DNA of 64,000 nt from the NCBI GenBank assembly GCA_052035095.1, contig JBPOHW010000007.1, positions 1,705 through 65,704 on the forward strand. Reading direction: 5' to 3'. Origin of the DNA: Candidatus Moraniibacteriota bacterium. Lineage in GTDB: Bacteria > Patescibacteriota > Minisyncoccia > Moranbacterales > UBA1568. Made by a program: the position numbers and the translations under genes. Under the pieces are notes generated by a model. It was not told where the DNA came from. It saw only the letters and a list, made by a program, of their open reading frames with translations, and made no database searches. Shown piece by piece: positions 4,684-62,934 of this stretch (the first letter of the stretch is position 1; the number at the start of each line of letters is the position of its first letter).

Positions 4684-5763
4684 CTAAAAACTCGCCGAAA
4701 CGACAACTGTCAAGAGGTCGGTATAATCGCTCGCCGCGGGTGTAATGGACGAGGATTTCGCCTTGAGAAGAAACGAACCGCGCCCGCCAACGAGAGGCGC
4801 ACTCGATGAGAAAATTTCCCGAAGCGAGGTATCGATGACGCCGACATTCGCCGCTGCGCCATTATACGGCGACACAAAGGCGAGCGGACCACCCGAAAAC
4901 TGTGAAACCGATGACCCCTGCGCGCCATAGCCGCTCGTCGCAACCGCGAGATCCGCCGTCGCCGAAGGAATTGCCGATCCGGCAGACACGCTCGAAAGTC
5001 CCGCGTTCGCGCTCGATACATAGGCCTTGCCACCCGAAGTTCCATTGGTCGCAAAGTCCACCCACACTTTTTCAGGTCCATCCGTCACGGTATTCGCGAC
5101 GAGATTGCCAAACGCAACCGCAAACGGCGGATTGGTCTCCGTATCCGTTCCGGCAACATCGATATCAAAGGAAAGTGTCGGCGCGACCGTCGCCGCCGAC
5201 GCCTCCGGTCCATAGCCCGTCTCGGTAAACTTCCCCTGCATCGCCTTCACCTTCACTTTGTAGGTCGTACTCGAAAGAAGCCCGATCACAAGCTCACCAG
5301 ACGCCCCACCCCAGTTGGCAAAAGTCTGATAGTCCTCAATTCCCAAAGTCGCCCCCGCGGTATTGTCACTCTGCACGTAGAGTGTCGTCACCCAGTTGTC
5401 CGGAGAAATCGCAATCGCGAACGTCGCGTCCGACGGATTGTCGCCATCATCGAGTGTCAAAAGAAGCTTATTGTAATAGCTCGAAGGATTGGTGAAGGCT
5501 GGCGCCGGAGGGACATTCGCCTGTTGGGTAAAAATGAGTCCCGGTCCCATATCGTAATTCGTCCCGGACAACTGATCGCTATTCGGCTCTCCCGTGATCG
5601 CGTCCATCGCGTAATTCGCCGAGCTCATATTCTCCTCTCCTCCCGACCCGAAACCGTAACTCTTCAGTTGATAATTCGTACTCGCCGGGAACGCGAAGAG
5701 AAGCAGAAAACTCGTCGTCACAAAACTTTTTTGTATTTTTTTGAAAAAATTTCCAAACAACAT
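4684..5763 (-). CDS. Thr/Gly/Ala-rich secreted surface protein, paralog of 3574..4626
   Basis: ORF 4684..5943 trimmed to ATG at 5763 (MLFGNFFKKIQKSFVTTSFLLLFAFPAS signal peptide). C-terminus SDYTDLLTVVVSASF parallels the neighbouring paralog. Confidence 0.6.
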   Translation of the reverse strand: MLFGNFFKKIQKSFVTTSFLLLFAFPASTNYQLKSYGFGSGGEENMSSANYAMDAITGEPNSDQLSGTNYDMGPGLIFTQQANVPPAPAFTNPSSYYNKLLLTLDDGDNPSDATFAIAISPDNWVTTLYVQSDNTAGATLGIEDYQTFANWGGASGELVIGLLSSTTYKVKVKAMQGKFTETGYGPEASAATVAPTLSFDIDVAGTDTETNPPFAVAFGNLVANTVTDGPEKVWVDFATNGTSGGKAYVSSANAGLSSVSAGSAIPSATADLAVATSGYGAQGSSVSQFSGGPLAFVSPYNGAAANVGVIDTSLREIFSSSAPLVGGRGSFLLKAKSSSITPAASDYTDLLTVVVSASF

Positions 5764-5855
5764 ACATCGAGAAATCACAAAAAATTTCACCCCTGAAAAG
5801 ATTTCTGTGTTTGAATCATATCGCATTGCTTCGAGCACCTTTTCATGCACGCCGA

Positions 5856-5929
5856 GACCGCAGAAAATAATTTTTCGAAAGTTTGCTCCGATAGAGAGGA
5901 GCATGTGAGAAAAATTGTTTTCTGCGGTC
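5856..5929 (+). repeat. Repeat family 2, copy A: hairpin with a 21-bp AT-rich stem (one G.U on the plus strand) and a 32-nt conserved loop
   Basis: gaccgcagaaaataatttttc [gaaagtttgctccgatagagaggagcatgtga] gaaaaattgttttctgcggtc, followed by gaggcaac. Near-identical to 53575..53649 (shared loop boxes AGTTTGCTCCGA and GAGGAGCATGTGAG). Confidence 0.8.
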
Positions 5930-6202
5930 GAGGCAACTCTCATAGGACTTCCTCACTTTGATGCAGTTCGAGGAAAAACCGAGCACCGGAACGAGGTGTA
6001 TGAGACATACTCCGAGTGAGGAGCGCAGGTTTTGACGAAGAAATGCGCAAAGTGAGGAAAGCCTATCTCAATAAAACAAAGCCATGTATATCCACACAGA
6101 AAAAAGAAATCCTTTACGCGCAACACAAATAGTATACACCAAAAAAAGAACGACCGCTGAAAAAGCGATCGTTCCACTCCGCCTCCAACATCGCGCTCGC
6201 GT

Positions 6203-11941: not shown

Positions 11942-12113
11942 TTTCAAAACTTCCGCCTGCGACAAAGAGAAAGAAATTAACGGAGGGGCGGGCAGGCCTG
12001 CGAAAACCACAAATGAAAGCTTCTTTGGGAGGTTATTTCTCTCCAGGACACACAATCTCACCTACCAAGCCCCGGAGCATTTCTTGAACGTGTCACAGGC
12101 GAAAGCTTTGAAA
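11942..12113. repeat. Repeat family 1, copy 2: conserved core closed by a 23-bp inverted repeat with 3 mismatches
   Basis: Flanks tttcaaaacttccgcctgcgaca / tgtcacaggcgaaagctttgaaa. All three mismatches are C.A on the plus strand and would be G.U on the minus-strand transcript. Confidence 0.85.
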
Positions 12114-13602: not shown

Positions 13603-13788
13603 CAGGACTTCCACATTTGTCAAACCTGCCTGCCGGTAGGCAGGGGGAGAGAAATCAACGGAGGGGCGGGCAGACTTACAAAAAACGCGAGAGAAAGCTT
13701 CTTTGGGAGGTTATTTACATCCATAACACAAAAACTCACCTACCAAGCCCCGGAGCATTTCTCGAACGTGACAAATGTGGAAGTCCTG
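13603..13788. repeat. Repeat family 1, copy 3: conserved core closed by a 20-bp perfect inverted repeat; carries an extra GC-rich palindrome (13625..13644)
   Basis: Flanks caggacttccacatttgtca / tgacaaatgtggaagtcctg. Internal cctgcctgccggtaggcagg hairpin sits immediately 5' of the core. Confidence 0.85.
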
Positions 13789-17068: not shown

Positions 17069-18814
17069 CTACTTCATACGCACATGCCAGACGGCGCCAT
17101 CCTTGATGTAGAGGACTTTGTCGCCCCATACACCAAGAATCATATCGGTCGTGATCATTCGATCCGTTACCGAACGCTGTTGCTTGTTTGTCGGAACATA
17201 AACATCCATTTTGCCATCTTCGACAATCGCCACCTGAACACACCCAGCCGCCTTTGGAACAAGGGCAATGTTCAAACTCTGCGCATCTGTCACGCCGCTC
17301 CAGTACTCGTATCCGCTATAATCCGGCTTCATCGTCAATTCAATTTTTCGATAGTCACCATTTTTATCGGCGGCGATAATTGAAATGAATCCATTTCCGG
17401 ATCGAGCGGCTATCGGTCGAAGCCCATCCAATTCCTTAACACGAACTGTTCTGCATAACCCCGCTCCAAATGGGGCTACGATAAACATCGCACCAATGGC
17501 ATCCGTCACTCCAATGCCATCAAACCACCTCGTGGAATTAACAAGGACATCTACTGCCTTACCAGCACTTATCAACGGTCCCCTTGCCACGAGAAAAAAA
17601 GAAATCTCAACCAAACTTTGACTCGCCACAACAAACAGTCGATTTTCATATCGAACAACTCGTTGTCCTGCCGTTTGAAATGGAATAGGAGTTTCTTTTT
17701 GATGTTGCGATTTTCCGATATAGGAAAATGCGACACTCCCTCCTTTCATCTCCCCGACGAGCCATCCCTTCTCTACCGAGACCACTTCGCAATCTGTCGA
17801 ATGATTTCCCCCAATACGTTGCTTCGTGGAAAGATCCACAAGGGATCCATCTGACAAGAGAACAACGCCACAGGAAAACATCCGAACAACCTTTACTTGT
17901 GAGTCGGCAAAGATTTTCTCGAAGATAAGCGCTCCTTGCCCGCTCGTTACAACACGGAGAACCCGACCTGCCGCCGTTACCGCCACACCCACTGCAAACG
18001 GCGAAGGCATTTCGCTTCTTTCCCCGTTTTGAAACGTGGCAATGTACCAATCCAGCAGCGAACTGGGAATCTTATACGGATCCCGCACCGCCGCATTGAG
18101 CCGCACACCCGTCGTAAAAACAGATTTATTGTCTTGCATCCGTTTTACGAGGTCCTTGCGCGCGTATCCATCAAGCGTCCCTTTGTACGGATGAATTCCG
18201 GTATACAACTGAAAGGTAACAATACCCACCGAGAACCAATCCGACGCAGACGTAAATCCATTTGCGTGGTAGTCTCGAATGGACGGCATAATCACTGATG
18301 CCCCCCACTGATCAATCGCCCACGCGTCAACATCAATAGCGGAAACTTCAGGCTTCCCTTTCCCACTCCAATAAAGCAACCAATTGAGTTCGTTTGGATC
18401 GACAAGCGTGGCACCGCCACCATGCGCCGCAAGGGCAATTTCCCTCATCTGATGAACGGCGTCATTTGTTTCCTTATCCCCAAACCCAACCTGTTGCCTA
18501 TGATCCGTTGTGAAAAACGGCGGCAACATCATTCCCTCAACATACGGCGCCCAGTAACCAATCGGCTGACCTCCGACAATCGCCAGGCCTTTCGGTCCGG
18601 CGATATGCGGATGATTGATGTTGGCAAGAAGCCTGAATTTCTCCGGCATTCTGTCGTGCCGCATTTTTTGGTCATCCGCATACACCTTGACGACCGTATC
18701 CACATCTGCGCGGTAGACAGATCCTTCACCGCCTGTGGCGATATGATTCTGATCTGTCAGTACAACATCCTTATGATGTTCGAGTGATACTTTCAACACC
18801 TTTCCTTTAGCCAT
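17069..18814 (-). CDS. Divergent Ser/Thr protein kinase-like protein with C-terminal beta-rich domain (TerY-P triad kinase)
   Basis: Trimmed to ATG at 18814 (SD GAGGAGGG at -9). Gly-loop-like GGEGSVY, Lys-motif VVKVY and a D-W-S-V-G...Y-G subdomain (DWFSVGIVTFQLYTGIHPYKG). Start overlaps the stop of the PP2C gene. Confidence 0.55.
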   Translation of the reverse strand: MAKGKVLKVSLEHHKDVVLTDQNHIATGGEGSVYRADVDTVVKVYADDQKMRHDRMPEKFRLLANINHPHIAGPKGLAIVGGQPIGYWAPYVEGMMLPPFFTTDHRQQVGFGDKETNDAVHQMREIALAAHGGGATLVDPNELNWLLYWSGKGKPEVSAIDVDAWAIDQWGASVIMPSIRDYHANGFTSASDWFSVGIVTFQLYTGIHPYKGTLDGYARKDLVKRMQDNKSVFTTGVRLNAAVRDPYKIPSSLLDWYIATFQNGERSEMPSPFAVGVAVTAAGRVLRVVTSGQGALIFEKIFADSQVKVVRMFSCGVVLLSDGSLVDLSTKQRIGGNHSTDCEVVSVEKGWLVGEMKGGSVAFSYIGKSQHQKETPIPFQTAGQRVVRYENRLFVVASQSLVEISFFLVARGPLISAGKAVDVLVNSTRWFDGIGVTDAIGAMFIVAPFGAGLCRTVRVKELDGLRPIAARSGNGFISIIAADKNGDYRKIELTMKPDYSGYEYWSGVTDAQSLNIALVPKAAGCVQVAIVEDGKMDVYVPTNKQQRSVTDRMITTDMILGVWGDKVLYIKDGAVWHVRMK

Positions 18815-21857: not shown

Positions 21858-23861
21858 TCACTTCTTTTTCTTCCCTTTCTTTTTTTCTTTTTTCTTCTCC
21901 TTTTTGTCCGGTTTCTCCTCATCCGGAATATTTTTTCCGAAACGACTCGCGAGCGCGTAAATATCGGTCGGCGACGAAGCATACGGAGTAAAGACCGTTT
22001 TCGGATATCGGTCGAGCACGCGATCAAGAAAATCTCGCCAGAGAGGCGCCGCGACATAGACGCCGTCCGCGCCGTATCGAAGCGGCGTATTATCATTGTT
22101 CCCCGCCCACACAGAAACGGCGAGATGGGGAGTATACCCCACCGTCCATGCGTCGTGGAAGTCTTGAGTCGTCCCCGTCTTCGCGGCGACTCGACCTCGA
22201 GGGAACGCGAGCGGACCGCCTCGTCCGAATATGGGCGCGCGAAAATCATCATCCGAAAGCATCGTATTAATGCGTCGCGCAACTTCCGGAGAGAGCACTC
22301 GCGTCTCCTCAACAGTCGGCGTTTCCCGAAACGATCCATCGGCATTTTCAACCGAGAGCACGAATCGAGGCGTGCGGCGCACACCCTCCGAGGCAAACAC
22401 GGAAAACGCGCTCGCCATATCAAGCGGCAACACTTCCGCCCCGCCCAAAACAAGCGCGAGTCCATAGGGTCGCCCATCATCCAAAGTCGAGATGCCGAGA
22501 CGCTTCGCCAATTCAATCACATCAGAAACACCGGAAACGGCAAGTGTCTGTACGGCGGGAATATTCAAGGACTGCGGAAGTGCCTCTTTCATCGGAAGCG
22601 CTCCGCGATACTTGCCGTCGTAATCCTTCGGAATATAGTCGCGCCCCGTCCCGTCAGGACCGAAGTTGGTCGGCACATCATAAACGAGCGTTTCCGGCTG
22701 ATACCCTTCTTCAAACGCGCGTGCGTACGCAAACGGTTTAAAGGCCGAGCCCGGCTGGCGCGGACGAAGTGTCACATTCACTTTTCCATCAATATCCGCA
22801 TCAAAATAATCGCGGCTCCCCACCATCGCAAGCACATCGCCCGTCGAGACATCGACCGCGACGAGCGCTGCGTTCTCGGCGCCATACGAAGCATTGCGCT
22901 GAACCCCGTTTCGAACCGCCACCTCCGCCGCCTCCTGAAAATCAAGATCCAGCGTCGTCCGAATGGAGAGTCCCCGCGTCTCGAGAAAATCCCGTCCATG
23001 ATACTTTTCCAAGGCATCGATCACTGCAAACACAAAATGCGGCGCGCGAATCGGCGCCTCAATCGGGCGAATTTTCGCGAGCGTATTTTCGCTCCGCGCG
23101 AGTTCGACCTCGTACGGCGTCGCCACTCCGTCCTCCACCATACGGGAGAGAATCATCAACTGCCGGGCGCGAAGTTCCTTCCGATGCGATCCATACGGCG
23201 AGTAATACGTCGTCGCTCGCGGAAGCGCGGAAAGAAGCGCTGCCTCATCGAGCGAGAGTTCGCGCGCGCGCTTTCCAAAAAAAACTTTCGCCGCGCGTTC
23301 GATACCGTACGCATTCGAACCGTACGGAACGATATTGAGATACAGATCGAGAATTTCATCTTTCGTGTAGGCGCGCTCGATTTTTATAGCGAGTATCGCC
23401 TCGCGAATTTTTCGCGTATAAGTTTTTTCATTCGAGAGAAACACGATACGGGCAAGCTGCTGCGTAATAGTTGAGGCGCCTTGTTCGATAGAACCGCTCT
23501 CAACATTGACCCGAGCCGCACGAAGAATTGAAAAGAAATCAACGCCGATATGCCGAAAAAACGACCGGTCCTCCGCGGCAACTGTCGCCCGACGAACACC
23601 ATCCGGAATATCCTCATGCCCGATCACCGTGCGATTTTCTTCTCCGTGAAGCTCATAGAGTAAGACCGTTCCCGTCCGATCATAGATACCCGATGTTTCC
23701 GAAAGCCTCCGATTGAGAAGTTGCGTAATATCCGTCGTATCGGAAAAATAGAGTGCGAAAAAACCAAGCATCACTCCGATACCGATACAAAAAATCCAAT
23801 ACGCGCTCTCCCACACGCATGAAAAAAGAATCGTCACACATCGTTTCCCCCACACATTCAT
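21858..23861 (-). CDS. Class A penicillin-binding protein (transglycosylase + transpeptidase, PBP1A-type) with Lys-rich C-terminal tail
   Basis: N-terminal TM. GT51 motifs (EDRSFFRHIGVD..., ITQQLAR). Transpeptidase SxxK/SxN/KTG(T) region. C-terminal PDEEKPDKKEKKKEKKKGKKKK tail. Confidence 0.85.
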   Translation of the reverse strand: MNVWGKRCVTILFSCVWESAYWIFCIGIGVMLGFFALYFSDTTDITQLLNRRLSETSGIYDRTGTVLLYELHGEENRTVIGHEDIPDGVRRATVAAEDRSFFRHIGVDFFSILRAARVNVESGSIEQGASTITQQLARIVFLSNEKTYTRKIREAILAIKIERAYTKDEILDLYLNIVPYGSNAYGIERAAKVFFGKRARELSLDEAALLSALPRATTYYSPYGSHRKELRARQLMILSRMVEDGVATPYEVELARSENTLAKIRPIEAPIRAPHFVFAVIDALEKYHGRDFLETRGLSIRTTLDLDFQEAAEVAVRNGVQRNASYGAENAALVAVDVSTGDVLAMVGSRDYFDADIDGKVNVTLRPRQPGSAFKPFAYARAFEEGYQPETLVYDVPTNFGPDGTGRDYIPKDYDGKYRGALPMKEALPQSLNIPAVQTLAVSGVSDVIELAKRLGISTLDDGRPYGLALVLGGAEVLPLDMASAFSVFASEGVRRTPRFVLSVENADGSFRETPTVEETRVLSPEVARRINTMLSDDDFRAPIFGRGGPLAFPRGRVAAKTGTTQDFHDAWTVGYTPHLAVSVWAGNNDNTPLRYGADGVYVAAPLWRDFLDRVLDRYPKTVFTPYASSPTDIYALASRFGKNIPDEEKPDKKEKKKEKKKGKKKK

Positions 23862-23954
23862 ACGGAATCACCTGGAATAAAGAATCATAACCGACTTCCA
23901 AACAGCCCTGCATCCAGAATTTCAGTATAGAAACTTTCGGCCTCGACGGAAAGA

Positions 23955-24318: not shown

Positions 24319-24468
24319 TGACACTCGTCATCCCCGAGAAATCGGGGATCCAGGTTCCACCAGCTTCCAGGAGGCGCGTTACAAATTTCATTCGTGGGGC
24401 GATTGTGTTTGATAAGTAGTGACTGGATTTCCGCCTTCGTGGGAATGACAGAAAAGAAAGTTTTATTT

Positions 24469-26205: not shown

Positions 26206-26314
26206 ACTATCACTATAACAGAAAACGACATTCGATAAAATCGAAGTGGATTTTCAATGACCAATTTTCAATTTCCAATATAAATCGAATCAAACGGACT
26301 TCCTTGAAAATTGA

Positions 26315-26899
26315 TCATTGATCATTGGACATTTTGCTCACATAGTACCCGACATCCGCCACCCACTTCTCCTCCGACGAATCAAGTGGCGTCCCGAGAA
26401 AGCCGCGTTTCCACACCACCAGTTTTCGCGGCGTATCGAGCCCCTGATCGAGAAGTTCCCGAAGACGCGCAGAAACCGTCATAACCGCCTCTCCGGGCGA
26501 GGCGAAACAGCTGTATCCCGAATCGGTCGTATCTTCAGAGCCGCGATACCCCCAATAATTGAAACAATTTTTCCCGTTTTTCTGCGGCGAAAATTTCCCC
26601 CAATTGCTTTCTTTCTTCGCGATCGCAACCAGGTACGTCGCCACTCGTTGATCGCGCGTCGCGATATACGGCACCATCCGCTCAATCGGATGCCCCGCAA
26701 CCAAAGCCTGAATCCTCATCTCAAAAGCGCTTTTCGATGATAAGGGGGATTTCATTTCATCATTCGCCCGCTTGCCGAATGATACCAAAAAAAATGTCAC
26801 CGCAAGCGCCGTTGCGAATACGAGTGCGAGCAGCAAAAGGTTTCGATCGGAACGCCGAAACCATCGAGAGTAGAGAAAGTTCTGTTTTGTTTTTGTCAT
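26315..26899 (-). CDS. Membrane-anchored hypothetical protein, possible glucosaminidase/peptidoglycan-hydrolase-like (weak)
   Basis: 194 aa. N-terminal TM. IAKKESNWGKF motif resembles the E-S-G-W-G motif of glucosaminidase domains. Confidence 0.4.
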   Translation of the reverse strand: MTKTKQNFLYSRWFRRSDRNLLLLALVFATALAVTFFLVSFGKRANDEMKSPLSSKSAFEMRIQALVAGHPIERMVPYIATRDQRVATYLVAIAKKESNWGKFSPQKNGKNCFNYWGYRGSEDTTDSGYSCFASPGEAVMTVSARLRELLDQGLDTPRKLVVWKRGFLGTPLDSSEEKWVADVGYYVSKMSNDQ

Positions 26900-40777: not shown

Positions 40778-41707
40778 TCACGTCGTCGCTGGCGCGAAAA
40801 ACTCCGCAATTTGTCGAACGATGACGAGCGACGCGAGCGCGACCACGATACCGAGGAGTGCAAAAGTGACAATCTTCTTCGCCACCCCGATCCGATTCAT
40901 ATCCCCTGCCGCGCCGAGGAACATAATGCCCCCGATAACGAGGAAAATAATCGCGAGAATCCCTACGATTCCAAGAAGGAAATTGAGGACCGAGAGAAGG
41001 ATATCCGCGGCGCTCTTTGCACCCGAGACCTCCGGCGGAACCGTGCCGCCCCAGCCCAAGACCGTCGCGATTTCCTTGAGGAAGGTCGGCGCCAAAATCC
41101 CGATCGCGAGCCCGATGAGGGCCGCCGTGATCGCGAGCTTCGCCGCCGTCACCTGCGACTGTCGCCCGCCGGACGTAATGTACAAGACCGCTCCAATCAC
41201 GATAAAGACGAGCGAAAGCACGACAATGACACCCTGCAAAGCATACAACAACGCTGTCAAAACTTCTTGTACCGTATCATATTTCAAGGGATTGGGAAGC
41301 GTTATGCTCACCGACGAGCCGGATCCGGTTGTTGTCCCTCCACCACCCGTACCCCTTGGGGGACAATAATTTGGTTTCGTTGGATCCGTACATATAGATT
41401 TGCATCCTGTCTGTGTCGTATCATCATCCGCAGTACAAGTTGTCTTACAATAACTCGCATTGCACGTGGAGGAAGAACTGCTTGTTTCGCAGCAAATATA
41501 CCCTTCCGAACTACTGCAATTATCAAACGTTCCCGATTTAATAACTCCAGGAGAGGGGCAGGTTTCTTGGCATACGCATGTTTTTCCGCTACTGCATGAT
41601 GCCTGACATGTCGCCGCTTTTGCCCCTTCCGGTGCCACTGCAAACGCCCCCAACACCAGCACCCCCAACACGGCCGCTACCCTCCCAAATTGTGCCATTG
41701 TTTCCAT
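40778..41707 (-). CDS. Cys-rich secreted protein fused to two tandem TrbC/VirB2-like pilin modules
   Basis: Signal peptide (METMAQFGRVAAVLGVLVLGAFAVAPEGAKA). Roughly 110-aa Cys/Ser/Thr-rich region (CQASCSSGKTCVCQETC...), Gly-rich linker, then two pilin-like hydrophobic hairpin modules (…LYITSGG… and …MFLGAAGDMNRIGVAKK…). Confidence 0.65.
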   Translation of the reverse strand: METMAQFGRVAAVLGVLVLGAFAVAPEGAKAATCQASCSSGKTCVCQETCPSPGVIKSGTFDNCSSSEGYICCETSSSSSTCNASYCKTTCTADDDTTQTGCKSICTDPTKPNYCPPRGTGGGGTTTGSGSSVSITLPNPLKYDTVQEVLTALLYALQGVIVVLSLVFIVIGAVLYITSGGRQSQVTAAKLAITAALIGLAIGILAPTFLKEIATVLGWGGTVPPEVSGAKSAADILLSVLNFLLGIVGILAIIFLVIGGIMFLGAAGDMNRIGVAKKIVTFALLGIVVALASLVIVRQIAEFFAPATT

Positions 41708-41723
41708 AATGAGTAGTGAGTAG

Positions 41724-41741
41724 ATAGTAGCGAGTAGATAG
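41724..41741. repeat. Left 18-bp terminal inverted repeat (ATAGTAGCGAGTAGATAG) of the four-helix-bundle cassette; embedded in AGTAGNN heptamer tandem repeats
   Basis: Exact reverse complement at 42229..42246. Region 41711..41741 reads gagtagtgagtagatagtagcgagtagatag. A second arm at 41774..41793 forms a long hairpin with 41719..41738. Confidence 0.8.
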
Positions 41742-41802
41742 AAAATAAAATGTTTTCTACCTACCAAATACTGTCTACTCGTTGCTATCTACTGATAAAT
41801 AC

Positions 41803-42180
41803 CTAAATATTATTCCTGACAGACTTCATTAGGCCGGAGAGAATTTTACTTACCTGTATCGTTTCCTCAGCAAGGGCGTCAAAAATATTTCTTTCAAGAA
41901 ATCCGATATCTCGTGCAATAAGCAGTTGGTTTTGAAGTTCAAAAATAGATCCTCTGGAAATAGCGTAAAATTGAAGTTTTTCTTTGGAAGAGCTCCTGCC
42001 AAATCCCTCTGCAATGTTGGAAGTAATGGAAATAGCACACCGACGTATCTGATTCGTAAGAGAAAAAATTTCCGCCCTCGGAAAAGACTCAGTTGCCCGA
42101 TAGACTGCAAGCACCAATTTGTGCCCTTTCTGCCACACTACCAAATCCGTAAAAGACTGTATTTTTGATATATCGCCCAT
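41803..42180 (-). CDS. Four-helix-bundle protein of the 'S23 ribosomal / rRNA intervening-sequence protein' family (PF05635-like)
   Basis: 125 aa. MGDISKIQSFTDLVVWQKGHKLVLAVYRATESFPRAEIFSLTNQIRRCAISITSNIAEGFGR... Local base composition is more AT-rich than the flanking pilin genes (by eye). Confidence 0.65.
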   Translation of the reverse strand: MGDISKIQSFTDLVVWQKGHKLVLAVYRATESFPRAEIFSLTNQIRRCAISITSNIAEGFGRSSSKEKLQFYAISRGSIFELQNQLLIARDIGFLERNIFDALAEETIQVSKILSGLMKSVRNNI

Positions 42181-50001: not shown

Positions 50002-50184
50002 GAAAACGTCTGATTTTGAGTGCAGTTCGACCCGCTTCGCCAGAGCTACAGCGAGGCGAGGGAAGATGTGCGGAGTGGAATGAATTGTTTGGGAAACAAT
50101 TCATTGTATGTAAACATACAGCGTCCCCGCCGAGGCGGGGGAGCATCTGATCCCGCCAAGGCGGGACCAAAATCAGACGTTTTC
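50002..50184. repeat. Intergenic hairpin cluster bounded by a 17-bp perfect inverted repeat (GAAAACGTCTGATTTTG / CAAAATCAGACGTTTTC)
   Basis: Contains a 12-bp perfect hairpin aatgaattgtttGGGaaacaattcatt (50079..50105), the dyad tgtatgtaaacataca (50104..50120), and GC hairpins ccccgccGAGgcggggg and tcccgccAAggcggga. Confidence 0.8.
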
Positions 50185-51592: not shown

Positions 51593-51698
51593 ACGAAAAC
51601 GCCGCAAAAAAAATATGTTTTCGCTTTGTTTTTCATTGCTGGTTAGTTATTGAGTATTATTTGTATCTTGTAATTTGGAATTTGTTATTTCTCTCCCT

Positions 51699-53456
51699 AT
51701 GGATGAACCCAAAAAAACCGTCAAAATTCCTTCATCCGTCTCCGTGAAACGTCTCGCGGAAATTTTCGGTATGCCGGTCTCCTCGGTCATTATGGAGCTC
51801 ATGAAAAACAAGATCCTGGCAACCATCAATGAAGAAATAGACTTCGAAACCGCGAGCATCATCGCTCAGGACTTGGGGTTTGAAACCGAGGAAGACCTCG
51901 AAACCGGCGAGAGCGACACCTTTACCCTCGAGCGACTCCTCGAAATCTGTGCCCAAGAAAAAGCCTCCGGCAAAACGCTCGACAAACGCCCGGCGGTCGT
52001 CACCATACTCGGGCACGTCGATCATGGCAAAACCACCCTCCTCGATACGATTCGCAAAACCAATGTCGCCGGCAAAGAAGCGGGCGGCATCACGCAAGCG
52101 ATGAGCGCCTATCAGGTCAAAAAGCGCGGGAGCATCATTACATTCATCGACACACCCGGTCACGAAGCCTTCTCCTCAATGCGCGAACGCGGGGTCGCCC
52201 TCGCCGATATCGCCATCCTCGTCGTTGCCGCCGACGACGGCGTCCGCCCTCAGACCAAAGAAGTCATTTCCTACATCCTTGAACACCATATTCCCGCCAT
52301 TGTCGCCGTCAACAAAATCGACAAACCCGAAGCGAATATCCCGCGCGTCAAACAAGAACTCGCCGACAACGGCATCCTCATCGAGGAATGGGGCGGGACC
52401 TACCCCTTGGTCGAGATAAGCGCCAAACACGGCAAGAATATCGACAAACTCCTCGAGCATATTCTCTTGGTCGCCGACATACACGACTTCCGAAGCGATA
52501 CCAAACGCGACGGACTCGGCATCGTCCTCGAATCGCACCTCGATCCGCAAAAGGGTCCCGTCGCTGTCGCCCTTGTCAAAACCGGCACGCTCAAAGTAGG
52601 GCAAGACATCACCGTCGGAAGCGCGCACGGGCGCATCCGTCGACTCGAAGACTTTGCCGGCAAAAACATCGCCGTCGCACTCCCTTCAACCCCCGTCCAG
52701 CTCTATGGCTTGAGCGCGGCGCCCAATACCAATGACGTGGTCCAAGTCGTGGGAAGCAAAATCGCCGCGCGCCTCAAGTCTCGCGAACGTATGACAGGGA
52801 GCCTCGGCAAGAAAGAGCTCCAAACCGTCCAAGAAGACGGCGTCAAGAAATTCCCCCTCGTCGTCAAGGCGGATGTTCACGGCTCACTGGAAGCCTTGGA
52901 GCAAATATTCGGCACGATTCCCGCCGATGAAATCACGCTCGATATCGTCTCTCAAGGCGTGGGCGCCATCACCGAGTCCGACGTCAAAATGGCGGAAAGC
53001 GCCGGCGCGCTTATCGTGGGCTTTAACGTTGTGCCGACTCCCGTCGCGAGCCGTATGGCGGAAAGCGCGAAAATTGAAATACAGAGCTTCAGCATCATCT
53101 ACAAACTCGTCGAATTCGTCAAAGAAAAACTCTCCGCTCTCCTCCCGCCCGAAATAATCCGCACCGACCTGGGCGCGCTCGCCGTCCTTGCTGTCTTCAA
53201 AACCGGCAAACACGATATGATCGTCGGCGGCCGCGTGAATAACGGCAAAATCGTGAAGGGTTCGCAGATCGAAATACGGCGCGATGACGAAATCATCGGC
53301 ACGGGACGCCTCGCCAATCTCCAGCAGAACAAAAAGAACACCGATGAAGTAGGGAGTGGCAACGAATGCGGCCTCACCGTCGAAACCACAACCAAAATCC
53401 ACATCGGCGACACCCTTCTCTCCTTCACCATCGAGGAAAAACGGAGAACACTGTAA
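51699..53456 (+). CDS. infB: Translation initiation factor IF-2 (short form)
   Basis: ATG at 51699 (ORF track extends to a TTG at 51675). G-domain motifs GHVDHGKTTLLD, DTPGH, NKID. C-terminal beta-barrel domains. Confidence 0.9.
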   Translation: MDEPKKTVKIPSSVSVKRLAEIFGMPVSSVIMELMKNKILATINEEIDFETASIIAQDLGFETEEDLETGESDTFTLERLLEICAQEKASGKTLDKRPAVVTILGHVDHGKTTLLDTIRKTNVAGKEAGGITQAMSAYQVKKRGSIITFIDTPGHEAFSSMRERGVALADIAILVVAADDGVRPQTKEVISYILEHHIPAIVAVNKIDKPEANIPRVKQELADNGILIEEWGGTYPLVEISAKHGKNIDKLLEHILLVADIHDFRSDTKRDGLGIVLESHLDPQKGPVAVALVKTGTLKVGQDITVGSAHGRIRRLEDFAGKNIAVALPSTPVQLYGLSAAPNTNDVVQVVGSKIAARLKSRERMTGSLGKKELQTVQEDGVKKFPLVVKADVHGSLEALEQIFGTIPADEITLDIVSQGVGAITESDVKMAESAGALIVGFNVVPTPVASRMAESAKIEIQSFSIIYKLVEFVKEKLSALLPPEIIRTDLGALAVLAVFKTGKHDMIVGGRVNNGKIVKGSQIEIRRDDEIIGTGRLANLQQNKKNTDEVGSGNECGLTVETTTKIHIGDTLLSFTIEEKRRTL

Positions 53457-53574
53457 CATCCGACTTGAAACACACGAAACAAATACAAAACTCCGATACA
53501 TTCCGGAGTTTTGTTGGTATAATGTCACTATAGCTAACCTATATACTCTGAAAATTTCTACCATGCGCGCTGAA

Positions 53575-53649
53575 ACCGCGAAAAATAATTTTTCTCTAGT
53601 TTGCTCCGAGCCCAATGAGGAGCATGTGAGAAAAATTATTTTTCGCGGT
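53575..53649 (+). repeat. Repeat family 2, copy B: perfect 20-bp AT-rich stem hairpin with 35-nt conserved loop
   Basis: accgcgaaaaataatttttc [tctagtttgctccgagcccaatgaggagcatgtga] gaaaaattatttttcgcggt, then gaggcaac. Located between infB and cca. Confidence 0.8.
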
Positions 53650-53692
53650 CGAGGCAACGTTCAAAAGAGCAGAAATTGAACAAATTGAGAGT

Positions 53693-55396
53693 ATGATCGA
53701 TATGAAAGAATCACAAAAAATCCCCCTTCCCGTCCTTGAAACCCTTTTCGCACTTGAAAGGGCTGGGTTTGAGGCGTTTATCGTGGGCGGATGCGTGCGC
53801 GATCTCATCTTGGAAAGAGAGCCCAAAGACTGGGACATCACCACCAATGCCCTCCCCGAAGAAATTCAAGCCATATTCCCCGACAGCTTCTATGAAAACG
53901 TTTTCGGCACCGTCGGCGTAAAGGTCAGACCCTTCATGCCCAAAGGAAAAGAAGATCGCGAAGAAGACGTGATCGAAATCACCACCTACCGCGCCGAATC
54001 CGGCTACGACGACAAGCGCCACCCTTCAAACATTTCCTTCGTCAAAACCGTCGAAGAAGACCTTGCCCGCCGCGACTTCACGATGAACGCGATCGCGCTG
54101 CGAACTGACAACTCACAACTTACAACTGACAACGCTTCACAACTTCCAACTTCCAACTTCCAACCGACAACTCGCAACAAAAACACGACATTGAAATCCG
54201 AAATTGAAAATTGTGAATTGAACATTGAAAATTCCCTCCCGAACTACCCACTACCCACTACCAACTACCAACTTATTGATCCTTTCAACGGTCAACGAGA
54301 TATCAAAGACAAAACCATCCGCGCGGTTGGCGATCCAGACGCTCGCCTCGGCGAGGACGCGCTCCGAATGCTCCGCGCTGTCCGATTCTACGCCGAACTC
54401 CGCACGCCGACGCCGCTTCCCAAAGAGGCCTTTATGGAAAAGGGAAATGAAAGCGATTTGCTCCACCATTCATCCGACTGGACTATCGAATCGGAAACCT
54501 GTGCGGCGATCAAGCGGCGAGTCGGCGACATTCGCGCCATATCAATGGAGCGCATCGGAGACGAACTCGGGAAAATCCTCCTCTCACCAAGCCCCGCCCA
54601 CGGCATCGATATGTTGCGGAAAACCGGACTCTTGTCGCGCATCCTGCCGGAACTCGAAGCGGGCGTCGGCGTCGGACAAAATCTCCACCATATCTATACC
54701 GTCTACGAACACAATCTCCGCGCCCTCGCAACCTGCCCTTCAAAAAAGCTCGAAGTACGCCTCGCCGCCCTTCTCCACGACGTCGGGAAGCCCCAAACCA
54801 AGCGCGGCGAGGGCTACCGATCCACCTTCTACAATCACGACCATGTGGGCGCCCGCATCACCCGAAGACTCCTCGAGCGACTGCGCTTCCCCGCGAAACT
54901 CATCGCAAAAACCGTGCTCCTCGTTGACAACCATCTCTTTTACTATAATGTAGGGGAAGTGACCGCCGCCTCCGTCCGCCGCCTCATCCGACGCGTGGGA
55001 CTCGAGAATATGCGCGACCTGATGGACATCCGCATCGGCGACCGCCTCGGATCCGGCACACCCAAGGCAAAGCCCTACAAATTGCGCCACCTAGAATATA
55101 TGATCGAGAAGGTCTCAAATGATCCCGTCTCGGTCAAAATGCTCGCCATAAACGGCAGTGACGTGATGAAAGAACTCGCGATCACTCCGGGACCCAAAAT
55201 CGGCGCTATACTGGACGTCCTCCTTGCGGAAGTTATCGAAGATCCGACAAAAAACACCAAAGAATCCCTCTTCGAACGCGCCAAAGAACTCGAGAAAGAA
55301 GACTTGAACCGCCTCCGCGAACTCGCCAAAGACAAAATAGAAGAAAAACGCGCGTCAGACGATCAAAAAGTCAAACACAAACACTGGGTGCAGTAA
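53693..55396 (+). CDS. cca: tRNA nucleotidyltransferase (CCA-adding enzyme; poly(A) polymerase head + HD domain) with low-complexity insertion
   Basis: Head domain GGCVRDLIL...DWD and HD domain (HDVGKP). In-frame insert TDNSQLTTDNASQLPTSNFQPTTRNKNTTLKSEIENCELNIENSLPNYPLPTTNYQL is encoded by simple DNA repeats (54100..54260). Confidence 0.8.
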   Translation: MIDMKESQKIPLPVLETLFALERAGFEAFIVGGCVRDLILEREPKDWDITTNALPEEIQAIFPDSFYENVFGTVGVKVRPFMPKGKEDREEDVIEITTYRAESGYDDKRHPSNISFVKTVEEDLARRDFTMNAIALRTDNSQLTTDNASQLPTSNFQPTTRNKNTTLKSEIENCELNIENSLPNYPLPTTNYQLIDPFNGQRDIKDKTIRAVGDPDARLGEDALRMLRAVRFYAELRTPTPLPKEAFMEKGNESDLLHHSSDWTIESETCAAIKRRVGDIRAISMERIGDELGKILLSPSPAHGIDMLRKTGLLSRILPELEAGVGVGQNLHHIYTVYEHNLRALATCPSKKLEVRLAALLHDVGKPQTKRGEGYRSTFYNHDHVGARITRRLLERLRFPAKLIAKTVLLVDNHLFYYNVGEVTAASVRRLIRRVGLENMRDLMDIRIGDRLGSGTPKAKPYKLRHLEYMIEKVSNDPVSVKMLAINGSDVMKELAITPGPKIGAILDVLLAEVIEDPTKNTKESLFERAKELEKEDLNRLRELAKDKIEEKRASDDQKVKHKHWVQ

Positions 55397-60721: not shown

Positions 60722-60906
60722 GAAATTCGCGTATTCGGCTAACCTGCCTGCCGGCAAGGCAGGGAGAAAGAAATTAACGAAGGGGCGAGCAAACGTACAA
60801 AAACCACAAACGAAAGCTTCTTTGGGAGGTTATTTCTATCCATAACATACAAACTCACCTACCAAGCCCCGGAGCATTTCTTGAACGTGCCGAATACGCG
60901 AATTTC
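60722..60906. repeat. Repeat family 1, copy 4: conserved core closed by an 18-bp perfect inverted repeat; carries GC-rich palindrome 60743..60763
   Basis: Flanks gaaattcgcgtattcggc / gccgaatacgcgaatttc. Internal cctgcctgccggcaaggcagg. Lies 75 nt upstream (minus-strand sense) of nrdA and just downstream of sodA. Confidence 0.85.
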
Positions 60907-62738: not shown

Positions 62739-62934
62739 TTTATCTTACGCGAAATAATTTACTCTTCTGTCATCCCGACCGGAGCGACCTAAGGAGCGAA
62801 GTGGAGGGATCTGCGTCTTAACAGAAAGGCAGTGCTTCCAGAAAGATTGAGATTCCTCGGCTTCGCTCGGAATGACAGAGTTCTTTTGTTTTGTGGCTTA
62901 AAAAAAAGACTTCTATTATTTCGCGTAAGATAAA
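62739..62934. repeat. Long imperfect palindromic element in the prx/rluD divergent intergenic region; 20-bp perfect outer IR plus ~23-bp imperfect inner IR
   Basis: Outer tttatcttacgcgaaataat (62739..62758) / attatttcgcgtaagataaa (62915..62934). Inner tctgtcatcccgaccggagcgac / tcggcttcgctcggaatgacaga. Adjacent direct repeat tttatcttac x2 (62726, 62739). Confidence 0.75.

Follow-up and report, generated by a model that had tools for sequence, protein, structure and literature searches.

The 64-kb window analyzed here, a stretch of a Candidatus Moraniibacteriota genome (Parcubacteria/Patescibacteria), contains two related AT-rich hairpins, copy A at 5856-5929 and copy B at 53575-53649, which are very probably the cores of old copies of a miniature inverted-repeat transposable element (MITE). 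This non-autonomous DNA transposon is ~152 bp long and appears to be specific to a subclade of Candidatus Moraniibacteriota. We assign it to the MITEs because of its small size, which is below the ~600 bp expected of MITEs, the lack of an open reading frame (ORF), its inverted repeats, the target duplication, the many dispersed copies and the insertion polymorphism. The original prediction had described the two sites as a two-copy hairpin family; the family turned out to have dozens of copies, and the hairpin is the central part of the larger element.

Two related hairpins in the window

Both hairpins have an AT-rich stem of 21-23 bp that is closed by GC pairs of the GACCGC/GCGGTC type. The stem arms are GACCGCAGAAAATAATTTTTC and GAAAAATTGTTTTCTGCGGTC in copy A, with a single T.G pair at 5868/5917, and ACCGCGAAAAATAATTTTTCTC and GAGAAAAATTATTTTTCGCGGT in copy B. 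At two adjacent stem pairs the copies differ by double (compensatory) changes, AG/CT in copy A versus GA/TC in copy B. Two loop boxes, AGTTTGCTCCGA and GAGGAGCATGTGAG, are identical in both copies and pair with each other as an inner UGCUCC/GGAGCA hairpin, and the 3' flank GAGGCAAC is identical as well. The similarity reaches 5843-5941 and 53561-53662, so that the structure also includes a GA/GA 2x2 internal loop and, outside it, a GCC/GGC helix. Within the window, the exact 12-, 14- and 14-mer boxes occur at these two sites only.

The plus-strand minimum free energy (MFE) was -49.4 kcal/mol for copy A (z -8.0) and -46.3 kcal/mol for copy B (z -7.5), and none of 200 shuffled sequences folded as well; the minus strand of copy A reached -41.9 kcal/mol. 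A covariance model run over the window scored copy A at 113.6 bits, copy B at 101.5 bits and the runner-up at 17 bits. The resemblance between the copies is real and far beyond chance, and the stem that had been proposed at both sites is present, with z of about -8. The runner-up model matches, at 41707-41804 and 26242-26334 (17.3 and 16.5 bits), are unrelated AT-rich imperfect inverted repeats, one of them built of GTAGATAG-like short repeats. When the window, copy A and a full copy from a metagenome-assembled genome (MAG) were compared with Rfam at gathering and at permissive thresholds, only tRNAs passed; at the element itself the matches were sub-threshold ones to generic long-hairpin miRNA models.

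A dispersed element of about 152 bp

The best homologues of the CCA-adding enzyme gene cca of the window all belong to Candidatus Moraniibacteriota; the same protein is encoded on metagenome contigs from JGI whose identity to the window is 96-99%. For comparison we collected ~380 kb of loci altogether, labelled L001, L012, L027, L049 and so on. A scan of one genome per species with the pattern TTTGCTCC-N6-20-GGAGCATGTGAG matched 20 contigs of one MAG, Candidatus Moraniibacteriota XM1_ASGE3bin.7 (the source of L027), and a pattern limited to the flanks and a portion of the stem retrieved 15 further copies from the metagenome Ga0268298. The covariance model added variant copies in the same loci, which brought the totals to 24 or more copies for the MAG and 15 or more for the metagenome, and the family density is roughly one copy per 30 kb. 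Matches without the hairpin were set aside as chance hits (L016, L019, L022, L028 and L029 in the genome scan; L032, L038 and L039 in the metagenome scan). The search for more copies, and for a stem kept in relatives, had been put forward with the original prediction as its own test, and its outcome was positive.

When the copies were aligned with 250-nt flanks, the similarity ended sharply ~30 nt beyond the core on either side and the flanks were unique. The full element is ~152 bp long, with inverted-repeat ends that lie 150-155 bp apart. Intact copies have the layout TNA / TACCAAATTACCCTGAAGTCTTCTATCATGCAC - GCC GA GACC(AT-rich arm) - apical module - (AT-rich arm)GGTC GA GGC - AACTCACAAGGGAGCAGAGATTAGGGTAAGTTGGTA / TNA, in which the slashes mark the element boundaries. 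The terminal inverted repeats, 15-18 bp in length, are TACCAAATTACCCTGAAG at the left end and AGGGTAAGTTGGTA at the right end, the latter being the complement of TACCAACTTACCCT. The ends TACCAAATTACCCT... and ...AGGGTAAGTTGGTA are found in most MAG and metagenome copies, and remnants of them in the window copies. The two repeats differ by a fixed A/C at position 7 (ACCAAATTAC versus ACCAACTTAC); because this mismatch is fixed, the repeats behave as protein sites and not as a helix. No conserved ORF is compatible with the stem indels and variable loops, so the element has no coding capacity. This also bears out the earlier view that a start-stop minigene is unlikely, as the stem indels and the variable apical loops shift any frame. 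Both the minigene and a 36-codon ORF from the ATG in CATGCACGCC were rejected, since several copies lack the ATG and the frame is broken by stem indels of 1 nt and loop differences of 2-3 nt.

The element is flanked by a direct 3-bp target duplication, T(A/C/T)A. Identical triplets (TTA, TCA, TAA) were present in nine of 18 copies and triplets one base off in a further six (p = 0.0007, permutation test with shuffled partners), and none of the 18 agreed with an extension of the inverted repeats. The copy in L012 lies between TCA and TCA, and the syntenic window region (~23832-23916) is empty; this comparison gave no clean empty site, as the spacer is too diverged to show a single TNA. The element also occupies different sites in the orthologous neighbourhoods of L013 versus L047 and of L025 versus L041, and contig L051 starts and stops inside copies, as a multi-copy repeat would give. 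The neighbouring genes are housekeeping genes, and the flanks are unrelated between copies. Judged by naive ORF calls, the orientation relative to these genes is mixed (15-16 copies antisense, 6 sense, 6 divergent and 4 convergent), and the duplicated triplet is the TAA or TGA stop of a flanking ORF in at least seven copies. Many copies span the entire spacer from the stop codon to the next start.

Covariation and strand bias of the core hairpin

Pairing in the core was assessed on 35 cores, with 500 column shuffles and with the pairing partner slid by 1-3 columns. Standard pairs filled 96.9% of the cells and double changes occurred at 13 of the 32 pairs; no shuffle reached any of the five measures, and sliding the partner lowered the pairing to 44-60%. 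The inner helix (helix 2) is 100% paired, with double changes at two of its six pairs (UA to CG, GC to AU, CG to UA in L043). The compensatory changes that had been noticed between the two window copies extend across all 35. This pattern argues that the internal hairpin is under structural constraint, and the hairpin appears unusually well kept for a MITE.

Wobble pairs in the core are strongly biased: 27 G.T/T.G cells at 13 columns are wobbles on the plus strand, whereas A.C, the combination that would make a minus-strand wobble, fills three cells (p about 0.02, counted as column events). The bias is equal for elements in the direction of their flanking genes and for elements opposed to them. 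It hints at a single-stranded plus-strand form, RNA or DNA, that would serve the element itself and not each host transcript. The preference for the plus strand, first proposed from the one T.G pair of copy A, is therefore carried by the family, although it fits DNA as well as RNA. The weak point of the covariation and wobble counts is that the copies are related and their cells are not independent events; stem variants are subfamily markers common to several organisms (the L049 stem, for example, is that of L042 and L045). In addition, correction between the palindrome arms at the time of replication could mimic compensation; the wobble bias is not produced that way.

The apical modules vary between subfamilies and include CGCUCC...GGAGUG, GCUCU...AGAGC, the unrelated GGAACTTCAGCGTACTCGGTGCGTTCC (present, among others, at the L049 cca site) and GAACGTCGGATCAGCATTCGTGAAACGTGTGAA. 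Three copies have lost the apical part and become plain palindromes, and in four copies one AT arm has become a short GC hairpin. The loop boxes had been described as conserved; this holds between copies A and B but not across the family, where other modules take their place, even in the orthologous cca-leader copy of L049. Since the apical modules are swappable, a sequence-specific role of the loop boxes is unlikely, and what stays constant is the long stem. Small GC hairpins were observed inside copies at L012:3480-3500, L026:~225-245, L020:~1565-1585, L036:~13660-13680 and L027:~75-120. Where such a hairpin takes the place of one AT-rich arm, it is CCCCGATTTTTTCGGGG in three independent cases and TCCCGCCTTGGCGGGA in one; a further copy has a GC hairpin within its loop.

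A model for mobility and the points against it

We propose that a DDE transposase acting in trans would make 3-bp staggered cuts at TNA and move the element. Judged by the target type, the mobilising enzyme may be of the IS5 family (IS1031/ISL2-like) or PIF/Harbinger-like. Since TNA covers TAA and TGA, many insertions would fall exactly on stop codons and duplicate them, and others would fill the spacers before start codons. The element would land where little harm is done and would be transcribed as part of operons, and its internal 23-26-bp hairpin may be kept by selection on a single-stranded plus-strand form. Once transcribed, the element (copy B, if it lies in the cca leader) is predicted to fold into a long rod, whose perfect 21-23-bp stem would, by analogy, be a natural RNase III substrate; the basal helix of copy B is predicted to overlap the cca ribosome-binding region. 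The window copies would persist as parts of transcription units and not through mobility.

Several points weigh against the transposon interpretation. First, no parent transposase or autonomous element with matching ends was found in the ~380 kb of loci, in viral contigs or in plasmid and phage collections. An inverted-repeat search with mismatches over all collected loci returned short elements only, the 146 non-core ORFs contained no multi-copy ORF family (seven ORFs sampled from paired groups were housekeeping genes), and the plasmid and phage collections held no match to the element. Second, the covariation of the internal hairpin and the 27:3 wobble bias are unaccounted for by a cut-and-paste mechanism on double-stranded DNA; the bias lacks an explanation under plain cut-and-paste because it is independent of the direction of the flanking genes. 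Third, the window copies have neither intact inverted repeats nor a recognisable target duplication, and their membership of the family rests on sequence homology to intact copies elsewhere. At last, the gene calls behind the statements on orientation and stop codons are naive longest-ORF calls, and the better conservation of the cores is partly a matter of ascertainment, as most copies were retrieved by exact matches in or beside the core. A viral origin was considered as well and rejected, as three viral-contig scans gave zero or chance matches.

Other explanations of the hairpin

It is possible, though in our judgement somewhat unlikely, that the core is a functional plus-strand RNA, either a small RNA (sRNA) expressed from a promoter in the element or a leader module acting in cis, e.g. 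for cca, and that the transposon is its means of spread. The wobble bias to the plus strand in both gene contexts and the strong covariation in both helices would agree with such a role, as would the low identity of the arms (33-63%) compared with the cores (86-92%), which includes the L027 orthologue (L027orth) that was found by synteny and not by pattern. Furthermore, the cca-leader copy is kept in three lineages, and its predicted basal helix overlaps the cca start region. However, the left arm has no convincing sigma-70-like promoter (the consensus, read by eye, shows no properly spaced -35/-10 elements, and there is none at copy A) and the hairpin has no terminator downstream. About 70% of the copies between co-directional genes are antisense, so that read-through RNA would carry mostly the weaker strand. 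The apical boxes, too, are replaced in subfamilies, even at the L049 cca site, and deleted in three copies, the element is absent at the cca site in relatives of 68-73% cca identity, and there is no Rfam relative.

A related reading, which we regard as unlikely, takes the internal hairpin for a plus-strand-specific module that is spread by the MITE and acts as a small RNA, as a co-opted leader or processing signal, or as a single-stranded transposition intermediate. The sRNA, processing site and protein-binding site that had been suggested as the identity of the element are possible as secondary roles of the hairpin.

A protein-binding site in double-stranded DNA, or a cruciform, is quite doubtful. 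Each arm contains a 15-bp near-palindrome (GAAAAATAATTTTTC) that could bind a dimeric factor such as a transposase, a nucleoid protein or a regulator, the AT tract is invariant (T29-T33 / A71-A75), and IHF sites occur in MITEs such as Correia (PMC10969869). Nevertheless, changes at the palindrome center (TAA to CAA, TGA or GAA) break the symmetry within the arm and are compensated in the other arm, indicating that arm-to-arm pairing is what is kept. A double-stranded site also predicts no strand bias of the wobbles.

Mobility as single-stranded DNA, in which a Y1/HUH transposase would recognize the plus-strand hairpin of an IS200/IS605 derivative or a REP/REPIN element, seems very improbable to us. 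Strand-specific wobbles together with hairpin covariation are typical of such systems, and the hairpin is stable with DNA parameters; but the 3-bp direct duplication and the 15-18-bp inverted repeats are clear here, there is a single central hairpin with no subterminal left- and right-end hairpins, and none of the copies was seen to have a TnpA or RAYT gene nearby. Bidirectional intrinsic terminators common to the two loci are scarcely plausible: the hairpins are strong and intergenic, but they have no U-tract on either strand and were not flagged by the terminator scan, copy B follows the real infB terminator and a promoter-like box and lies 35 nt before the cca ATG, and many copies sit between the stop and the next start of co-directional genes. 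An integron attC site, which would have RYYYAAC and GTTRRRY boxes and belong to a cassette array, was rejected, because the hairpin ends in ...GGCAAC but has no GTT-box partner and the copies are scattered among housekeeping genes.

Relation to known repeats

The closest functional analogues of the element are the Correia, ERIC and RUP-type bacterial MITEs, and it belongs to none of them, as it differs in duplication and host and resembles none in sequence. It is a previously undescribed member of the bacterial MITEs, whereas the MITE kind itself is ordinary. The Correia elements (CREE/NEMIS) of Neisseria resemble it in being non-coding, small and multi-copy and in having terminal inverted repeats; they measure ~100-200 bp, exist in tens to hundreds of copies and insert at A/T-rich targets beside genes. 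The target duplication of Correia is TA, in contrast to the 3-bp TNA found here; there is no sequence similarity and the host phylum is another one, so that Correia is an analogue only. The architecture also differs: the Correia hairpin is made of its inverted repeats, with an IHF site in the center, while the present element has inverted repeats that keep their mismatch, and its pairing lies in an internal hairpin of its own, topped by a structured apical module. Correia transcripts fold to long hairpins that are cut by RNase III, and the ends of Correia can carry promoter-like boxes (PMC10969869); similarly, the right end with its duplication, TTGGTA plus TAA, is close to an extended -10 box here.

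ERIC is an imperfect palindrome in transcribed intergenic regions that affects mRNA stability (PMC10969869). The ERIC/IRU and RUP/BOX-type repeats of enterobacteria and streptococci resemble our element in that they, too, are imperfectly palindromic, measure 100-130 bp and lie between genes where transcription passes; they have no sequence relation to it, and it differs in its clear inverted repeats and duplication and in its restriction to a Moranbacteria subclade. REPINs and the PATEs of IS200/IS605 are likewise short dispersed hairpin repeats with compensatory changes and strand-specific recognition, but they lack a duplication and inverted repeats, both of which the element has, and they need a Y1 transposase and a fixed target tetranucleotide. 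The insertion sequences of the IS5 family (IS1031/ISL2) and the eukaryotic PIF/Harbinger-Tourist MITEs make a 3-bp duplication with a T-N-A or T-W-A preference. The 3-bp TNA duplication found here is alike, and the link to these groups rests on the length and sequence of the duplication only. The ends differ, being TACC... here as against the GAG/GGC-type ends of IS5 groups. A relationship exists between Harbinger and the IS5 family (PMC12730594).

The window copies and their surroundings

Copies A and B appear from their sequences to be old, immobilised relics, because the identity to the family consensus is 39-63% in the arms versus 88-92% in the cores and because another repeat is nested in copy A. 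The identities are 61% (left arm), 92% (core) and 39% (right arm) for copy A, and 63%, 88% and 55%, respectively, for copy B. The positions of the parts of both copies, and of the genes and repeats around them, are listed in Table 1.

Table 1 Features of the window and of the comparison loci (window positions unless a locus is named)
Feature	Position	Strand	Remarks
Minus-strand ORF	4684-5763	-	Signal-peptide-like N-terminus; 56 nt from left end of copy A; no Pfam family
Possible left target-duplication remnant TCA, copy A	5816-5818	+	Alignment to family left end (TNA, then TACC...); weak, right end lost
Degenerate left arm, copy A	5819-5850	+	TATCGCATTGCTTCGAG... versus consensus TACCAAATTACCCTGAAG...; 61% identity
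Core hairpin, copy A	5851-5934	+	Outer GCC/GGC, GA/GA internal loop, stem 5856-5876 / 5909-5929, apical module; AAC after it at 5935-5937
Inner hairpin, copy A	5884-5903	+	UGCUCC / GGAGCA around GAUAGAGA
Right-arm stub, copy A	5938-5947	+	TCTCATAGGA versus consensus TCACAAGGGA; rest of arm and right inverted repeat missing
hp2, different hairpin repeat family, ~125 nt	5942-6066	+	In place of right arm of copy A; MFE -56.3, z -6.95
infB	51675-53456	+	Upstream of copy B
infB terminator-like hairpin	53485-53514	+	AAAACTCCG...CGGAGTTTTGTT; flagged by terminator scan; kept in L049 and L027
Extended -10-like motif, putative cca promoter	53515-53523	+	TGGTATAAT; read from sequence; conserved in L049
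Left arm, copy B	53540-53568	+	Terminal bases partly deleted; BLAST to MAG copies from 53544; 63% identity to consensus
Core hairpin, copy B	53569-53655	+	Stem 53575-53596 / 53628-53649; inner hairpin 53602-53607 / 53619-53624
Degenerate right arm, copy B	53656-53690	+	Stops 2 nt before cca ATG at 53693
cca (CCA-adding enzyme)	53693-55396	+	Pfam PolyA_pol, PolyA_pol_RNAbd, HD, tRNA_NucTran2_2
Third repeat family, ~150 nt	2235-2400, 11945-12110, 13639-13783, 60758-60904; L001:17049-17194, 18628-18787; L023, L040, L042		Four window copies in same orientation
ATTCCC-N-GGGAAT element	24324-24463; L027:5099-5237; L006:2780-2892; L050:2829-3289		
Sister family	L013:747-842, L015:7840-7935, L023:4766-4861, L033:10307-10423, L048:892-986, L020:4393-4509		

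Copy A is antisense to both of its neighbours, two minus-strand genes that are separated by a spacer of 380 nt. Its place upstream of an opposite-strand gene had been stated correctly, at a distance of 56 nt, whereas the label of surface protein given to that gene falls on an ORF without a Pfam match. The hp2 repeat at 5942-6066 matches L041:1872-1971 at 86% identity and, more weakly, sequences in L001 (L001:6383-6478), L035 and L049. Another hp2 copy at window ~50030-50170 differs from that of the ~99%-identical strain L001 by several short perfect GC-rich hairpins, e.g. CCCCGCCGAGGCGGGG and TCCCGCCAAGGCGGGA, which have been inserted or have replaced other sequence.

Copy B lies between infB and cca on the same strand, as first described, and most likely forms the 5' leader of cca in the sense orientation. 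In the predicted fold of this leader (z -6.6), the left arm of copy B is paired with the last part of its right arm (UAUACUCU / GAGAGUAU), and the predicted basal helix, at 53544-53552 / 53686-53693, overlaps the Shine-Dalgarno-like GAGAG and the first AUG of cca. Copy B has an ortholog in L049, whose cca is 80% identical, with the same start-codon junction, TTGA(G/T)AGTATGA, and the same upstream TTGTTGGTATAAT. L027 (cca 74% identical) has a copy in the same infB-cca spacer, while in relatives at 68-73% cca identity (L050-L052) no element was found at the cca site, where other genes fill the spacer. As the window, L049 and L027 have the element at this site and L050-L052 lack it, the insertion is old and confined to the subclade. 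The putative cca promoter box GTTGGTATAAT (window 53510-53523, L049:~2852-2865) is identical over 10 nt to the MITE right end with its duplication, GTTGGTA plus TAA; either the element ends mimic an extended -10 box or the box is the solo end of an older copy.

Other repeat families and their turnover

Altogether, four or more families of small repeats are present in the window and its relatives. They are found at stop codons, in 5' leaders and in the spacers between genes, and a minimum of two intergenic repeat sites are not alike in strains of ~96-99% identity. Genomes of the candidate phyla radiation (CPR)/Patescibacteria are ~1 Mb in size and usually regarded as streamlined, and a full-text search of a library of papers found no description of MITEs in them. 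The interest of the present element lies in the density and turnover of repeats in a streamlined genome of ~1 Mb, and the strand-biased hairpin raises the question of how a MITE is maintained or co-opted. Recognizing such repeats avoids their mis-annotation as sRNAs, terminators or regulatory motifs. They also explain fragmented MAGs, as assemblies break at repeats (L051), and provide markers for strain tracking.

The third family, of ~150 nt, is bounded by the inverted sequences CAAAACTTCCGCATTCGGCA / TGCCGAATGCGGAAGTTTTG, and its interior, ...GGAGGGGCGAGCAAAC...CTTTGGGAGGTTATTTC...CCTACCAAGCCCCGGAGCATTTCTTGAACG, is highly conserved but forms no hairpin; a comparison of this family with Rfam gave no match. 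In the spacer between the AhpC and pseudouridine-synthase genes, strains that are 96-99% identical carry different repeats (window 62739-62932 versus L001:18617-18783): an inverted repeat of the GTCATCCCGACC...GGAATGAC type lies between CTTACGCGAAATAAT and ATTATTTCGCGTAAG in the window, and a copy of the ~150-nt family in L001. The difference at this spacer points to very recent repeat turnover.

A sister family shares the architecture of the MITE core, with TTTTTCTGGAGAAAATTGTTTTTTTGC / GCAAAAAAATAATTTTCTCCAGAAAAA as its long AT-rich stem and GGCTTTCGAACGCAGTGGAAGACAA as the apical part; its sequence and ends differ, and its copies score 34-46 bits in the covariance model. A further dispersed element, with the ends GTCATCCCCGAGAAATCGGGGATCC ... 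GGATTTCCGCCTTCGTGGGAATGAC and hairpins in the style of ATTCCC-N-GGGAAT, also occurs in the more distant complete genome CP064989.

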